This document shows, one piece after another, positions 1-4,692 of a stretch of 4,692 nt of DNA. The translations under genes and the position numbers were made by a program. The notes below the pieces were generated by a model. The model was not told the DNA's origin and did not search any database. It worked only from the letters and a program-made list of their open reading frames with translations. This DNA is from a virus (taxonomy: Duplodnaviria > Heunggongvirae > Uroviricota > Caudoviricetes). The stretch is taken from IMG/VR virus record IMGVR_UViG_2778261344_000003, positions 1 through 4,692 of that record; one strand, 5' to 3'. Within the stretch, counting starts at the first letter, position 1; each line of letters begins with the position of its first letter.

Positions 1-147
1 ATGCTTCCATCAGAAACGATGATCTGGCAGCCTGAGTTCACAGATAAAACACTCTCCAGGAAAACCGGGGCGGTTCAGGTCAGGGTTAACAGCGCCATCA
101 GGGCAAAGCCCATCCAGAGTCTTCGGGTCAGGGTTAAATTCACGGTC

Positions 148-177
148 GGTGCACTTAAGGTGAATAAGTTGTATATT
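148..177. other. Putative att core region (attL or attP core: C/B half-site, overlap, C' half-site), non-lambda specificity
   Basis: Sits about 60-90 bp downstream of the int stop, where lambda has its core. Sequence GCACTTAAGGTGAATAAGTTGTAT; the C'-like half (TAAGTTG) resembles lambda's, but the central part (AGGTGAA) replaces lambda's TTTATAC. Exact core boundaries cannot be set from sequence alone. Confidence 0.4.
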
Positions 178-192
178 TAAAAACTCTTTTAT

Positions 193-205
193 TATCAATG
201 AATTA
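193..205. promoter_or_regulatory. IHF binding site (H'-like) in the P' arm
   Basis: tATCAAtgaaTTA matches the IHF consensus WATCAANNNNTTR and occupies the same position relative to the core and int as the H' site in lambda attP. Confidence 0.45.
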
Positions 206-215
206 ATGTAAGTGG

Positions 216-245
216 GTCATTATTAGTCAAAATAAAATCATTTGT
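216..245. promoter_or_regulatory. Three tandem arm-type Int binding sites (P'1-P'3-like)
   Basis: GGTCATTATT / AGTCAAAAT / AAAATCATTTG are near-identical to the lambda P' arm (GGTCACTATC / AGTCAAAAT / AAAATCATTAT). The int stop codon (238-240) lies within the third site, as in lambda. Fits the lambda-identical N-terminal arm-binding domain of the encoded Int. Confidence 0.55.
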
Positions 246-1311
246 CGATTTCAATTTTGTCCCATTCCCGTCCACGGCTGTCCCTATACCGCGCCGCCAT
301 TAAATCTGATTTATGCCCGAGAAGACGTTGAGCAAACTTATCGCCAATCTGGTTCCGGTATAGCCTCGCTGACAGGCTACGCAGTTCATGGAATGTTGGC
401 GGGTTTCCATCAAATGAGAGTCCAGATGCATTTCTCGCCTTTGTAAAATACTTTGATACTGTTTTCGGGGAAAGCGGATCGTGATGCTTTGATGCGATTA
501 TAGTTTCACTGCTGCTGGCCTCCCTGCATTTCTGTAGTGTATCAGCCAATGAGATATTGAGCGCGTCAATCGTTAGCGTTAGCGGAATGGCGAGTTTAGC
601 CCCTGTTTTACTCTGTTCAATGTGAAGATGGTTGTCGTTTATGTCTGACCATTTCATTCTGCACAAATCGCCGACTCTCTGCCCTGTAACGACGGCCAAA
701 TCCATCGCCAGCCTTAGCCAGATAGGGAGAGGTTCGGCTGCATGGTAAATCTCGACATACTCATTAGCTGTCAGCCTTGAGCGCCTTACTTCTGACTTTG
801 CTGTACGGGTTGCTGTTACCGGATTCGTTGCAACATGCCCCTCGGCTATTGCTTCACGAAAAACGTCAACAAGGGTTGACCTGATTAATTTTGCGGAAGC
901 TGCTTTACCTTCTGCCACGTAGGTGTTTAGCATTGCTGCCACTTCTTTCGTTGATATGTCAGTGAGCGGTTTGTCCGGCAATTTTCTTCGGATTGCCCTG
1001 ATTTTGCTGGCGTAGTCGAGTAGAGTTTTCGGCCTGATCCCTCTTTCGGTGAGGATTCTTTCATATCGGTCAAGCCACACATGAAGAGTGATTGCGTCAC
1101 CGCCTTTAATTCTGTCTATCAGTGATTTGCGTCCGCTGTCTGAGAGTAACTCAATATTGGCCTGTATTGCTTCAGTGATTGCTATCCTCCTGTCTCGGCC
1201 TAATCCAAACTCTTTACCCGTCCTTGGGTCCCTGTAGCAGTAATATCCATTGTTTCTTATATAAAGGTTAGGGGGTAAATCCCGGCGCTCATGACTTCGC
1301 CTTCTTCCCAT
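238..1311 (-). CDS. int: Tyrosine site-specific integrase, lambda Int family (357 aa)
   Basis: ATG at 1311-1309, TGA at 240-238, GAGGA ribosome-binding site 7 nt upstream. The N-terminal ~55 aa (MGRRRSHERRDLPPNLYIRNNGYYCYRDPRTGKEFGLGRDRRIAITEAIQANIEL) match lambda Int as I recall it. Catalytic motifs are present: GQRVGDL (Arg), HELRSLSARLY (His/Arg), LLGHKSDLMAARY (His/Tyr). The core-binding and catalytic regions diverge from lambda. Confidence 0.95.
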   Translation of the reverse strand: MGRRRSHERRDLPPNLYIRNNGYYCYRDPRTGKEFGLGRDRRIAITEAIQANIELLSDSGRKSLIDRIKGGDAITLHVWLDRYERILTERGIRPKTLLDYASKIRAIRRKLPDKPLTDISTKEVAAMLNTYVAEGKAASAKLIRSTLVDVFREAIAEGHVATNPVTATRTAKSEVRRSRLTANEYVEIYHAAEPLPIWLRLAMDLAVVTGQRVGDLCRMKWSDINDNHLHIEQSKTGAKLAIPLTLTIDALNISLADTLQKCREASSSETIIASKHHDPLSPKTVSKYFTKARNASGLSFDGNPPTFHELRSLSARLYRNQIGDKFAQRLLGHKSDLMAARYRDSRGREWDKIEIDK

Positions 1312-1507
1312 TTCTGATCCTCTTCAAAAGGCTACCTGTTACTGGTCGATTTAAGTCAACCTTTACCGCTGATTCGTGGAACAGATACTCTCTGCCATCC
1401 TTAACCGGAGGAGGGAATATCCTGCATTCGCGCACCCATCGACGAACTGTTTCAAGGCTTCTTGGGCGTCGCTGGCGAGCGTTCCACTCCTGAAGTGTCA
1501 AGTACAT
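1289..1507 (-). CDS. xis: Excisionase Xis (72 aa)
   Basis: The protein MYLTLQEWNARQRRPRSLETVRRWVRECRIFPPPVKDGREYLFHESAVKVDLNRPVTG... matches lambda Xis almost exactly. The 3' end overlaps the int start by 23 nt, as in lambda. Confidence 0.93.
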   Translation of the reverse strand: MYLTLQEWNARQRRPRSLETVRRWVRECRIFPPPVKDGREYLFHESAVKVDLNRPVTGSLLKRIRNGKKAKS

Positions 1508-1519
1508 CGCAAAGTCTCC

Positions 1520-1533
1520 GCAATTACACGCAA
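1520..1533 (-). promoter_or_regulatory. cII activator site (TTGC-N6-TTGC) of the pI promoter for int
   Basis: The minus strand reads TTGCGTGTAATTGC just upstream of the xis ATG, matching the lambda pI cII-binding motif in the same position. In lambda the pI transcript starts inside xis, giving int without xis. Confidence 0.6.
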
Positions 1534-1534
1534 G

Positions 1535-1554
1535 AAAAAACCGCCATCAGGCGG
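1535..1554 (-). terminator. Candidate intrinsic terminator (minus strand) between the 55-aa ORF and xis
   Basis: Minus strand CCGCC-TGAT-GGCGG followed by TTTTTT; a 5-bp all-GC stem, 4-nt loop and T6 tract. The stem includes the stop codon of the 55-aa ORF. The stem is short, so strength is uncertain. Confidence 0.35.
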
Positions 1555-1714
1555 CTTGGTGTTCTTTCAGTTCTTCAATTCGAATATTGGTTACGTCTGC
1601 ATGTGCTATCTGCGCCCACAGCATCAAGTGGTCATAGCAGTCGCTGATGTTCTCGGCTTCGATAACTCTGTTGAATGGTTCTCCATTCCATTCACCTGTA
1701 ACTCGGAAGTGCAT
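1547..1714 (-). CDS. Small conserved hypothetical protein (55 aa), not in the supplied ORF track
   Basis: Hand translation of the minus strand: ATG at 1714-1712, TGA at 1549-1547, GGAG 7 nt upstream of the ATG. Product MHFRVTGEWNGEPFNRVIEAENISDCYDHLMLWAQIAHADVTNIRIEELKEHQAA. It sits where lambda has a ~55-codon ORF between xis and ea8.5. Confidence 0.6.
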   Translation of the reverse strand: MHFRVTGEWNGEPFNRVIEAENISDCYDHLMLWAQIAHADVTNIRIEELKEHQAA

Positions 1715-1722
1715 TTATCATC

Positions 1723-1752
1723 TCCATAAAACAAAACTCGCCGTAGCGAGTT
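1723..1752 (-). terminator. Candidate intrinsic terminator (minus strand) downstream of ea8.5
   Basis: Minus strand AACTCGC-tacg-GCGAGTT (7-bp stem, 4-nt loop) followed directly by TTTGTTTTATGG. It lies between the ea8.5 stop (1803) and the start of the 55-aa ORF (1714). Confidence 0.45.
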
Positions 1753-1802
1753 CAGATAAAAGAAATCCCCGCGAGTGCGAGGATAGTTACTTGTTCATAT
1801 TA

Positions 1803-2084
1803 TTAATCGTCAATGTATTTTGAGCATTGTGGGCAATCATCGATCCCACAATACGATTCATATGCATCCTTTATTGCGTCGCGGGCTTCAGTAAGAGTAT
1901 TGAATAAGTTGCAGCTATTATCTTTTTGATATAGGTAAGTTCCTAATTTATAAGCAGAAGAAGCATCATTTCCGCTGTCTAAAATTACATCGTTATGGAT
2001 TCTGCACCTTGCAAGAACTCCTGATCCCATAAGGGTCTGCATAGCCCATTGCTCTTGATCTTCACACAAATCATGAATGCTCAT
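1803..2084 (-). CDS. ea8.5: Ea8.5-like protein (93 aa), Cys-containing putative zinc-binding protein
   Basis: The ORF track starts at a GTG (2102); I place the start at the ATG 2084-2082, which has GAGG 7 nt upstream and yields 93 aa beginning MSIHDLCEDQEQWAMQ. Stop TAA at 1805-1803. Same size and position as lambda Ea8.5, with a C-terminal CPQC motif. Confidence 0.8.
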   Translation of the reverse strand: MSIHDLCEDQEQWAMQTLMGSGVLARCRIHNDVILDSGNDASSAYKLGTYLYQKDNSCNLFNTLTEARDAIKDAYESYCGIDDCPQCSKYIDD

Positions 2085-2183
2085 TTCAACACCTCTCTTC
2101 ACGTTTCACACACGTTAAGATTAACAGTGTTTTTACATGCTTTGGAAGATTTATTTTATAAAAACTCTTTTAATACAAATAGA

Positions 2184-2203
2184 TATAATAGTTCACTATT
2201 ATA
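2184..2203. repeat. Perfect 9-bp inverted repeat with 2-bp spacer (TATAATAGT-tc-ACTATTATA)
   Basis: Seen directly in the sequence. It overlaps the stop codon of the 2199-2996 gene and carries a TATAAT hexamer on both strands. Confidence 0.55.
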
Positions 2204-2996
2204 GCTCCTTTAATCGAGGCGGTTCTGGTAGAGGCATCCAGTGGGTTACACCGCCAATTGGCTCATCGTCGTCGTACTCCAATGCGGTTATATAGAACCC
2301 GTCACGACGAGAATAAGAAATCCCGGACATTACAATGCCATCCGAAACAACAATAATGTCACCCGTTTCTTTCGGCATTCGCTCACTACAGCTTATCCAA
2401 CCATCCGGAGTCACCGGAAGCGAGAACGGCAGCACATCTCTGTGAACAAGTTTTTGCTGTGACAGGTTATCCAGAACTTTCTGTACTGCTGCATCACCGA
2501 ATACACCAAGCGCATCTGCCATAACTCCTACAACCTGATAAGCCTCAGCGCATACCGTGGATAAACCATCCGGAATTACCGGAGAGTTGCCGGGTTCTTT
2601 AATGTGCAAGCGAGGCTCACCATCTTTTGGTTCAGGCCACTGGCGCTCCATGTTGATCTTCAATTTATCTTCCATAGCAGCGGTAATTTCAGCATCGCTG
2701 ATGCCAGCACGGCGCTGTGCATCCCACAACAGGAAATGCATATCAGCCCACTCGCTGAGATCGTCTGGTTCGACTGCGGCTTCCAGAGCCTCTTTTGAGA
2801 GGTGTTTCAGTGGACCAATGGGGCCAACGCAGCCAAATGTGGAGTCAGACCATTTGGCATGCTCGTGGCGAATCAGTTCGCGTTCCAGTGATGCCAGTGC
2901 AATTCGTGCCAGTTCCATTTGTTCGCCACGAGTAAGCCCGTTTTCAAGCGGATTTTTAATGAACAATTCAATACGTTCTTTGGTAATAGTGGGCAT
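2199..2996 (-). CDS. Two-domain phage protein (265 aa): N-terminal MazG-like dATP/dGTP pyrophosphohydrolase domain (DUF550) plus C-terminal DUF551
   Basis: ATG at 2996-2994 with AAGGA 7 nt upstream; TAA at 2201-2199. The N-terminal half has acidic-helix motifs typical of all-alpha NTP pyrophosphohydrolases (KEALEAAVEPDDLSEWADMHFLLWDAQRR; ISDAEITAAMEDKLKINMER). The C-terminus ends in the W...VTHWMPLPEPP pattern I associate with DUF551. Family assignment is from memory, not a search. Confidence 0.65.
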   Translation of the reverse strand: MPTITKERIELFIKNPLENGLTRGEQMELARIALASLERELIRHEHAKWSDSTFGCVGPIGPLKHLSKEALEAAVEPDDLSEWADMHFLLWDAQRRAGISDAEITAAMEDKLKINMERQWPEPKDGEPRLHIKEPGNSPVIPDGLSTVCAEAYQVVGVMADALGVFGDAAVQKVLDNLSQQKLVHRDVLPFSLPVTPDGWISCSERMPKETGDIIVVSDGIVMSGISYSRRDGFYITALEYDDDEPIGGVTHWMPLPEPPRLKEL

Positions 2997-3006
2997 TTGT
3001 TAGTCC

Positions 3007-3762
3007 TTAAAGTGCTAGTTGCAATTGCATTTCAAAGCGGTCGCGTTGTTCACAATACGCAAGAGAACCAGGGCTATTGTGTGCCTCAATCCGTTCTACC
3101 ATTAATGCTGCGCGTGTCTCTTTACTTGCAGGTGCATAAGCCCCAGACCAGGCTTTATCAATACCGATGTTTCGAGCGACGTTCGTACTATCTGCGCTGG
3201 CTAAGGGTAATTTTGTGAATATCAGCGGATTTAACATGCGCAATCCATGTAGTTTCGTAACCGGCTGACCATGCCCATCAACAATGTGACGAATCAGGTC
3301 TTTCATTCTGGCTACCGCAAGAGTTGGGCGCTTTACGTCATAGTCGCCACAACTACCGATAGCCACTCGCGGAAACTCATTGCACAAATGAATAAATCGC
3401 TCGTCACTTTCATTCATGTGCCACACTGGAACGCCAGCTAGTTTTCCGTGAGGCCACTCATTCAGAAGCGCATCATTTTCCTCCTCTCCGCCATCAATAA
3501 CATCCGAGATAATGGCAAAATCGAATCCTGGGTGATTCTTCCAGCGAGCAACAAACTCGTAGTAATCGCTCCAGTCGATTTTGTTTTTGCCAGCTGCTTT
3601 CCAGGCGGTGAATGCACCGTTGTCCAGCGCGAACGACTGACAGTATTCAGCCGCGAGATTGATCTGGCCTGAATGCGCAAAACTGATAAACGCATGTCGC
3701 CCTTTCCATGCTCTCATTGCGCACGTATCAGGAGTAATAGGCCCACCGTGGTAGTGAATCAT
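3007..3762 (-). CDS. Hypothetical protein (251 aa); tentative TGT (tRNA-guanine transglycosylase)/DpdA-like TIM-barrel fold
   Basis: The track ORF (3007-4005) would overlap ea22 by about 240 nt. I place the start at ATG 3762-3760, one nucleotide after the ea22 TGA, with AAGGAG 6 nt upstream. Four collinear motifs resemble TGT catalytic segments with similar spacing: ALDNGAF (cf. LTDSGGF), AIISDVIDGG (cf. IVMIFDECT), RVAIGSCG (cf. RYLMGVG), ADSTNVARN (cf. FDCVMPTRNARN). There is no C-terminal Cys/His zinc cluster. Confidence 0.5.
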   Translation of the reverse strand: MIHYHGGPITPDTCAMRAWKGRHAFISFAHSGQINLAAEYCQSFALDNGAFTAWKAAGKNKIDWSDYYEFVARWKNHPGFDFAIISDVIDGGEEENDALLNEWPHGKLAGVPVWHMNESDERFIHLCNEFPRVAIGSCGDYDVKRPTLAVARMKDLIRHIVDGHGQPVTKLHGLRMLNPLIFTKLPLASADSTNVARNIGIDKAWSGAYAPASKETRAALMVERIEAHNSPGSLAYCEQRDRFEMQLQLAL

Positions 3763-3763
3763 C

Positions 3764-4402
3764 TCACTCTCCTTTGATGCGAATGCCAGCGGCGCGCTCG
3801 GCTTCACTTTGTTCCCAAAACCACTTGTGAAGCTCCATAAGCTTTTCGTCAATCGGTGCATATTTGCGATTAAAGTAGGCCTGAGCATCTTTCTCAGATT
3901 CGTCCGGCAATTCGCCTGGGCCAAACAGTGTGTTATAAATCCATGCCAGTCCGCTTTTAGCGTCGCCAGTTGCCTGCCATTCGATAATCGCAGCCTGCAT
4001 GACAAGAATGTTTTTCCCGATTAACAGGTCCAGTTCTTTGTACCGGTTGCGGATGTATGCATTCTCGCTTTGTAATTTTGCGTTGCGCTTTTCTGAGGCT
4101 TCAAGTAACGCCTGCTTATCGCGTAGCGCTTCTTCCAGTTCAGCAACATGGCATTCACTATCAATAAGGTTGTTCTCTGCTGCTTCCAGCTCAACACGCA
4201 GCTTCCCTACCGTAAGAGCAATATCCTCGTTCTCCTGGTCGCGGCGTTTGATGTATTGCTGGTTTCTTTCCCGTTCATCCAGCAGCGCCAGCACAATCGA
4301 TGGTGTTACCAGCTCATGGAAAAGGTCCGCATCAAATCCCCAGTCGTCATGCATTGCCTGCTCTGCCGCTTCACGCAGTGCCTGAGAGTTAATTTCGCTC
4401 AC
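3764..4402 (-). CDS. ea22: Ea22-like protein (212 aa), mosaic
   Basis: GTG start at 4402-4400 overlapping the upstream TGA (GTGA); TGA stop at 3766-3764. The N-terminal ~75 aa (MSEINSQALREAAEQAMHDDWGFDADLFHELVTPSIV...) and the last residues (GIRIKGE) match lambda Ea22 as I recall it. The central coiled-coil-like segment and C-terminal domain differ. Confidence 0.85.
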   Translation of the reverse strand: MSEINSQALREAAEQAMHDDWGFDADLFHELVTPSIVLALLDERERNQQYIKRRDQENEDIALTVGKLRVELEAAENNLIDSECHVAELEEALRDKQALLEASEKRNAKLQSENAYIRNRYKELDLLIGKNILVMQAAIIEWQATGDAKSGLAWIYNTLFGPGELPDESEKDAQAYFNRKYAPIDEKLMELHKWFWEQSEAERAAGIRIKGE

Positions 4403-4620
4403 TTCGAACCTCTCTGTTTACTGATAAGCTCCAGATCTTCCTGGCAACTTGCACAAGTCCGACAACCCTGAACGGCCAGACGTCTTCGTTCATCTATGGG
4501 ATCGCCACACTCACAACAATGAGTGGCGGATATAGTCTGGTAGTTCAGACGACGCATTTTTATTGCTGTATTGCGCTGTAATTCTTCAATTTCTGATGCT
4601 GAATCAATGATGTCCGCCAT
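4399..4620 (-). CDS. TraR/DksA-family C4 zinc-finger protein (73 aa), lambda orf73-like
   Basis: ATG at 4620-4618, TGA at 4401-4399. The protein MADIIDSASEIEELQRNTAIKMRRLNYQTISATHCCECGDPIDERRRLAVQGCRTCASCQEDLELISKQRGSK has a CxxC-N17-CxxC zinc finger and matches the lambda TraR homolog at this position. Confidence 0.85.
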   Translation of the reverse strand: MADIIDSASEIEELQRNTAIKMRRLNYQTISATHCCECGDPIDERRRLAVQGCRTCASCQEDLELISKQRGSK

Positions 4621-4692
4621 CTTTCATTAATCCCTGAATTGTTGGTTAATACGCTTGAGGGTGAATGCGAATAATAAAAAAGGAGCCTGTAG

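Follow-up and report, generated by a model that had tools for sequence, protein, structure and literature searches.

The DpdA proteins of phages 9g and iggy, which are 68% identical to each other, are experimentally characterised as enzymes that insert 7-cyano-7-deazaguanine (preQ0) (PMC6884629, PMC10484667). A second kind of phage carries DpdA only; 76 such phages make up group 3 of Hutinet et al. 2019, and Supplementary Data 1 of that study places BTP1, SPN3UB, SfI, HK106 and 7-11 in this class (PMC6884629). Here we describe a gene of this second kind in a stretch of 4,692 nucleotides (the window; IMG/VR virus record IMGVR_UViG_2778261344_000003, positions 1–4,692), which is 100% identical to positions 1,250,166–1,254,857 of the Escherichia coli O103:H2 strain 129 chromosome. 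The gene lies on the minus strand at 3007–3762 and encodes 251 amino acids plus a stop codon, with its ATG at 3760–3762 and its TAA at 3007–3009. The protein (RefSeq WP_000582237.1) bears the RefSeq name 'hypothetical protein'. We propose that it is a stand-alone phage DpdA that places a host-made 7-deazaguanine in phage DNA, and we put the probability of this proposal as a whole at roughly 0.65.

The singleton DpdA proteins of gammaproteobacterial phages (those of BTP1, SPN3UB, 7-11, SEN1, SfI, HK106 and MED16, the last termed 'DpdA/TGT_1') belong to the same family as the protein studied here and are of similar length, at 234–266 residues. Like the prophage in question, their phages have no preQ0 genes of their own, and the temperate ones share the early-left accessory position. 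Nothing essential separates our gene from this group: it is the E. coli O103:H2 allele, it is annotated as hypothetical, and it has Ser86 in place of Pro86. The DpdA1 enzymes of the Queuovirinae-type phages 9g, CAjan and iggy also share LDxGAF, PxxH, the signature histidine (H196 in 9g, H172 here) and S-x-D-S with our protein, and none of them has CxCxxC. They differ from it in that identity is only 17–21%, in their length of 312–317 residues with extra N- and C-terminal segments, and in that their genes adjoin folE, queD, queE and queC, whereas ours has no pathway cluster.

The two groups also differ in the extent of modification. Direct data on the DNA of singleton relatives come from two lytic phages. 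Phage 7-11, whose DpdA is 35% identical to our protein, contains the deoxynucleoside of 7-amido-7-deazaguanine (dADG) at 50 per 10^6 nucleotides, or 0.02% of G (PMC6884629). In Pantoea phage MED16 (38% identical) dADG reaches 354 per 10^6 nucleotides, or 0.13% of G, with a trace of dPreQ0, and the DNA is cut by every tested restriction enzyme with G in its site (PMC8306585). The DpdA1 phages that have been measured, CAjan and iggy, modify approximately 16–32% of G, in contrast to at most 0.13% in the singleton relatives.

Assignment to the phage DpdA family

The protein matches PHROG 887, 'queuine tRNA-ribosyltransferase', over residues 1–248 (E = 3.6e-102). When used as a tblastn query against 50,697 phage records it matched 118, of which 60 were listed. 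Identity was 99% for the Shiga toxin 1a (Stx1a)-converting phage EH2115, 92% for Salmonella BTP1, SPN3UB and their relatives, 88% for Pantoea AH07, 67–69% for SfI (67%) and Klebsiella phages, 60% for a group of Vibrio phages and 35–38% for SEN1, HK106 and 7-11 (35%), and the match extended to the DpdA of Pseudomonas phage iggy (26%, E = 6e-6). A family profile was built from 51 relatives of 34–93% identity. Aligned with hhalign, this profile matched 7-11 DpdA with Prob 100 and E = 3.5e-45, and iggy DpdA with Prob 98.9 and E = 2.3e-17; in the iggy alignment, LDNGAFS pairs with LDSGAFS and SADST with SCDSS.

Together these data identify the protein, with high confidence, as a stand-alone member of the phage DpdA family, and we regard its membership as secure. 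A first-pass annotation of this DNA had proposed a guanine transglycosylase resembling DpdA or tRNA-guanine transglycosylase (TGT), which was right in substance given the match to PHROG 887, the profile alignments to 7-11 and iggy DpdA, and the catalytic residues described below. The assignment itself is already known, as 92%-identical proteins have been in print as DpdA since 2019. Alternatively, the protein could be an unrelated TIM-barrel, aldolase-like or TrpA-like, whose motifs resemble those of TGT by coincidence; this is excluded by the profile match to iggy DpdA, and we give it a negligible probability.

Detection of TGT itself was a different matter. Used as a single query, the protein had no meaningful match in Pfam, NCBIfam, PADLOC or PDB sequences (NCBIfam returned only tannase_B at chance level, E = 0.11), and hidden Markov model profiles of 30 and 51 relatives met only chance matches among PDB sequences (Rab8, GCN4 and designed repeat proteins), with no TGT or DpdA chain. 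The Pfam TGT model PF01702 matched neither the protein nor any of the 51 relatives at E ≤ 1, and when the family alignment served as the query in a further database search, it recovered close relatives only, with no Pfam-labelled distant ones. The first-pass annotation had put forward profile comparisons with PF01702, DpdA families and the PDB as a check; those to the two phage DpdA proteins succeeded, and those to PF01702 and PDB sequences did not. Alignment of the family profile with E. coli Tgt alone and with 81 gammaproteobacterial TGTs was likewise not significant in hhalign; given a TGT template of low diversity (an effective sequence number, Neff, of 2.2) and a comparison with no secondary-structure term, we treat this result as a sensitivity limit and not as evidence against homology. 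Bona fide DpdA proteins behave in the same way: those of 9g, iggy and MED16 have no Pfam match, and that of iggy has no PDB sequence match. The negatives therefore reflect the evolutionary distance between phage DpdA and TGT, and not a position outside the superfamily. Published links between phage DpdA and TGT all come from HHpred, for example 99.2% for MED16 DpdA against 2ASH and 100% for nt-1 DpdA2.

Predicted fold and the missing zinc subdomain

In the AlphaFold2 (AF2) model, the protein is a minimal eight-stranded TIM-barrel, (β/α)8, of the tRNA-guanine transglycosylase superfamily. Its nearest solved structure is Cap10 (9NTN_B), ranked first with a score of 15.9, followed in second place by bacterial DpdA (7UI4, 14.9); bacterial TGT (3UNT, 13.6) ranked fourth, archaeosine TGT (1IQ8, 13.3) sixth and QTRT2 (6FV5, 12.0) tenth. 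The structural comparison suggested at the first pass thus recovered bacterial DpdA and TGT in this ranking, whereas Foldseek searches found generic barrels only. An initial AF2 model, for which 30 close relatives were used, reached only a mediocre predicted local distance difference test score (pLDDT) of 73 and was discarded; its Foldseek matches were generic TIM barrels.

The bacterial DpdA of Salmonella Montevideo (7UI4) is 413 residues long and depends on the ATPase DpdB. It carries one insertion (Ins3) after strand 3 and a zinc-bearing insertion (Ins8) after strand 8 (PMC10164549); Ins8 spans 128 residues and also contains elements that contact DNA. Our protein differs in that it ends 60 residues past the predicted nucleophile Asp191, lacks zinc ligands and is accompanied by neither DpdB nor DpdC. 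The PADLOC models for DpdA, DpdB and DpdC matched neither the protein nor its neighbours, which are lambdoid ea genes, int and xis. E. coli Tgt has the zinc-motif cysteines C302, C304 and C307, but our protein lacks the CxCxxC...H pattern and none of its five cysteines is conserved. No CxCxxC was found anywhere in the 51 relatives, nor any CxxC within their last 90 residues, and iggy DpdA likewise has no zinc motif. The zinc site is therefore a mark of TGT and bacterial DpdA and not of phage DpdA, and the minimal fold without a C-terminal zinc subdomain, anticipated at the first pass, is borne out.

Predicted catalytic residues

The active site of bacterial DpdA comprises D95 (acid/base), F99, D130, H181, G206/G207, L236 and the nucleophile D256; roles for D95 and F99 have been described, and that of D256 has mutagenesis evidence (PMC10164549). 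In our protein, with strands taken from the AF2 model, D47 and F51 end strand 3, D87 lies after strand 4, H115 ends strand 5, G136 ends strand 6, H172 and L174 are in strand 7 and D191 is in strand 8. On this mapping, which follows strand order and not a superposition, the order of the active-site residues is comparable and so are their spacings, at 35, 51, 25, 30 and 20 in bacterial DpdA versus 40, 28, 21, 36–38 and 17–19 here.

Asp191 (SADST, end of strand 8; codon 3190–3192, this and all following codons being on the minus strand) does not vary among the 51 family members, and its aligned counterparts are D215 in 9g and D212 in iggy. It is the predicted catalytic nucleophile, the position held by D256 in bacterial DpdA. 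The predicted general acid/base is Asp47 (LDNGAF, end of strand 3; codon 3622–3624), invariant in all 51 members as well as in 9g and iggy, and equivalent to 9g D72, iggy D69, bacterial DpdA D95 and TGT D102. Four residues on, Phe51 (codon 3610–3612) gives the DxxxF spacing of D95/F99. Asp87 (PDVIDG, after strand 4; codon 3502–3504; 50 of 51 members) is predicted to recognise the base, as the putative counterpart of bacterial DpdA D130, TGT D156 and Cap10 D122; the exact equivalence is ambiguous because D90, and not D87, pairs with the aspartate of 9g and iggy in a MAFFT alignment. The residue directly before Asp87, Ser86 (codon 3505–3507), is proline in 47 of 51 members, including the 92%-identical BTP1 protein.

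Two conserved histidines complete the set, both overlooked at the first pass. His115 (PVWH, end of strand 5 on the active-site face; codon 3418–3420) occurs in 50 of 51 members and is invariant with 9g and iggy. His172 (KLHGLR, strand 7; codon 3247–3249) is the DpdA signature histidine; it occurs in every one of the 51 members and falls on H196 in 9g. Hutinet et al. 2019 (PMC6884629) describe the 'conserved histidine at position 196' of 9g as a DpdA feature missing from DpdA2. A comparable pair, H226/D248, is present in Cap10.

Within the 51-member family D47, H172, S189, D191 and S192 are invariant, and G136 is present in 49. In an alignment that reaches further, taking in our protein and those of BTP1, HK106, 7-11, MED16, DMCA, Pam5, iggy and 9g, all sequences agree at L46, D47, G49, A50, F51, G91, P112, H115, G136, H172, P186, D191 and S192. 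Judged on these alignments, the pattern of conserved motifs far exceeds chance. The four motifs named in the first-pass annotation all exist, namely ALDNGAF at 45–51 (D47), AIISDVIDGG at 83–92 (D87 and D90), GSCG at 136–139 and ADSTNVARN at 190–198. The aspartate of the last is D191 and not D201, and the spacings between motifs are 40, 49 and 55 where 40, 66 and 47 had been given. GSCG had been equated with the LMGVG of TGT; going by strand order and DpdA spacings, and not by superposition, it is probably the TGT AVGG strand instead, with KLHGLR (170–175) corresponding to LMGVG.

Proposed activity and substrate

By analogy with characterised DpdA and TGT enzymes, the target would be a deoxyguanosine in double-stranded DNA, whose C1′ Asp191 would attack so as to displace guanine, while Asp47 would serve as the general acid. 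A covalent enzyme–DNA intermediate would form and then be resolved by a host-made 7-deazaguanine base. Asp87 and His172 would recognise the incoming base, either preQ0 or 7-amido-7-deazaguanine (ADG), an intermediate of QueC, and phage DNA would end up with dPreQ0 or dADG at a low level and probably at a specific motif. Either preQ0 might be inserted and hydrated later, or ADG might be inserted directly. On the strength of its relatives, insertion of a 7-deazaguanine into DNA by this enzyme is likely, although both the DNA substrate and the identity of the base are inferred.

The protein could instead be a TGT-superfamily enzyme with a substrate other than DNA, such as tRNA or another RNA, or a protein-linked 7-deazaguanine, in the last case perhaps countering type IV CBASS or QatABCD. 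In favour of this, the best structural match, Cap10 of type IV CBASS, handles protein-linked 7-amido-7-deazaguanine, binding NDG-modified CD-NTase and working with the QueC-like Cap9. However, Cap10 is 9% identical to our protein with no sequence-level relation found, and homology runs to DNA-modifying phage DpdA and not detectably to Cap10 or TGT. Furthermore, the DpdA-only phages 7-11 and MED16 carry dADG in their DNA, and neighbouring genes are those of recombination, replication and DNA methylation. Genes for a CD-NTase and for a QueC-like Cap9 were both absent from the window and from 20 kb on either side, so that no CD-NTase-like partner is at hand. We consider a non-DNA substrate unlikely.

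A DNA base-exchange or excision enzyme that deals with a base other than preQ0 or ADG is less probable again. Such an enzyme would insert 7-aminomethyl-7-deazaguanine (preQ1) or 7-carboxy-7-deazaguanine (CDG), or would act as a glycosylase only. DpdA subfamilies do differ in this respect, since VH7D DpdA2 inserts preQ1, preQ0 and CDG, and the base used by DpdA3 is probably CDG, ADG or 7-deazaguanine (DG). Against it, the only products seen in the relatives are dADG and traces of dPreQ0, and the QueD and VUT transporter neighbours of homologues point to 7-deazaguanine precursors. In Caulobacter phage DMCA (5705–6726) a short QueD/PTPS-like gene (98 residues, with a Pfam score just above threshold) immediately precedes the homologue, and in Pseudanabaena phage Pam5 (4989–6468) a gene for a VUT/YhhQ-family transporter is two genes away from it. 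Independently of homology, these neighbours link the clade to 7-deazaguanine metabolism, and the two partial pathways suggest differing routes to a host-derived precursor.

A further possibility, which we hold only tentatively and at low probability, concerns the purpose of the lambdoid and P22-like singletons as a group. Rather than being bulk anti-restriction modifiers, they might mark a small number of specific sites with dADG, drawing directly on host ADG, or act on 7-deazaguanine–protein conjugates and thereby disarm type IV CBASS or QatABCD. Three observations are compatible with this: Cap10 is the nearest solved structure, the singleton phages tested have only trace dADG without restriction protection, and no preQ0-to-ADG enzyme is known in singleton DpdA phages. 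Any anti-restriction benefit of the present gene is likewise inferred.

Selection and integrity of the gene

Our gene shares 81.5% nucleotide and 92.5% protein identity with the allele of Salmonella phage BTP1; dN/dS between the two is 0.022, and the gene is therefore under strong purifying selection. Of 5,426 complete E. coli genomes, 204 have the allele (≥95% nucleotide identity), which is 95–100% conserved among these 204; many belong to Shiga toxin-producing strains.

These observations bear on whether the gene is a decaying, non-functional passenger. The prophage that carries it is degraded, with IS3 copies breaking exo and cII and a frameshift in the large terminase gene, and in E. coli O103:H2 strain 129 it is almost certainly defective. 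This, and the replacement of the near-invariant Pro86 by Ser86, would fit a gene in decay. The reading frame is intact, however, and has a strong ribosome-binding site, a Shine–Dalgarno sequence AAGGAG, read directly from the sequence, at 3769–3774 (minus strand), 6 nt 5′ of the ATG. With the low dN/dS, and with the allele conserved both in the 204 genomes and in an Stx1a-converting phage, decay becomes very improbable. Copies of one IS3-family element occur throughout the prophage (18822–34649 of the NZ_AP038976.1 locus), and one copy adjoins the int side, its end reaching positions 1–35 of the window.

Position in the prophage and neighbouring genes

The window is the left arm of a lambdoid prophage, and every gene in it lies on the minus strand. 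These are int (238–1311), xis (1289–1507), a 55-residue homologue of lambda p35 (phrog_676) adjoining xis (1547–1714), an ea8.5-like gene (1803–2102), a gene for a dATP/dGTP pyrophosphohydrolase (PF04447) fused to DUF551 (2199–2996), the dpdA-family gene, an Ead/Ea22-like gene (3764–4402) and, upstream of the last, a gene for a 73-residue TraR/DksA-type C4 zinc-finger protein (4399–4620), for which lambda has no gene at the equivalent position. Beyond the window the prophage continues with DUF1382, DUF1317, exo, bet, gam, kil, cIII and N. Lambda has the order int, xis, p35, ea8.5, ea22, orf61, orf63, orf60a, exo. With nothing between ea8.5 and ea22 in lambda, the dpdA-family and pyrophosphohydrolase genes are extra genes inserted between these two, in agreement with the first-pass statement that lambda has no gene here. 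The TGA of the Ead/Ea22-like gene (3764–3766) is separated from the ATG of our gene by one base, an arrangement which suggests that the two are translationally coupled. From its place in the early-left operon, the protein should be made from pL during lytic growth.

No folE, queC, queD or queE gene was found within the 25 kb of prophage examined. The gene therefore belongs to the singleton group, and its earlier description as a solitary enzyme in a lambdoid early-left position stands. E. coli itself makes preQ0 through FolE, QueD, QueE and QueC.

Phage BTP1 has the identical cassette, consisting of an ea22-like gene, DpdA and a DUF550 pyrophosphohydrolase gene (eaA). In HK106, SfI, KO-TP1, Vibrio D105 and three metagenomic phage contigs, the homologue has other neighbours, including recombination and replication genes, and no partner gene is conserved across this set. 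The downstream dATP/dGTP pyrophosphohydrolase was considered as an obligate partner and rejected, since it is adjacent in BTP1 but not in any of these other phages and contigs. In Klebsiella phage KO-TP1 (2501–5504) the DpdA homologue is followed by a PD-(D/E)XK protein and two DNA methyltransferases, an arrangement that resembles a small island of DNA-modification genes at the same early-left site.

The pyrophosphohydrolase gene at 2199–2996 is an uninterrupted open reading frame of 265 residues, with PF04447 at residues 42–137 and DUF551 at residues 199–260. RefSeq splits it into a shorter coding sequence (2199–2903) and a 'pseudogene' fragment (2877–2996). Its first approximately 45 residues and the remainder match different PHROGs, which suggests that the N-terminus is mosaic.

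The Ead/Ea22-like protein was also considered as a Dpd partner. Its residues 101–199 match the PADLOC model PDLC02890, 'DpdH' (E = 6.9e-36, 121 bits). The matching domain is present in 98 phage records and is 97–99% identical in 933W, VT2-Sakai and many other Stx phages; 933W and VT2-Sakai are absent from the DpdA tblastn matches listed (60 of the 118 records). As the domain is common to Stx phages that are not among the listed DpdA matches, we rejected a partnership, and the 'DpdH' match seems to stem from the naming or training set of the PADLOC model and not from a functional link to Dpd.

Annotation of the family and its significance

The family is large and poorly labelled. With 8,000 candidates scored, large protein databases contain upwards of 7,600 clusters of relatives at 90% identity, a lower bound, and 808 at 50% identity. 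Among 240 clusters listed, none has a Pfam domain and almost all are named 'hypothetical protein', as is the gene in 30 of the 30 rows listed for the 204 matching E. coli genomes. No Pfam, NCBIfam or PADLOC model covers the family. RefSeq viral records for BTP1, HK106, SEN1 and SW9, in contrast, read queuine tRNA-ribosyltransferase.

The family assignment as such adds little to what is available, given that PHROGs and RefSeq viral records already use the name queuine tRNA-ribosyltransferase and Hutinet et al. 2019 list these proteins as DpdA. Annotation of bacterial genomes, on the other hand, misses the family entirely and leaves thousands of homologues without a family name. On the role of stand-alone DpdA, the few existing data amount to trace dADG and no restriction protection. 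For its role in temperate phages, inducible prophages in genetically tractable hosts, such as BTP1 and the Stx1a phage, would be convenient systems.
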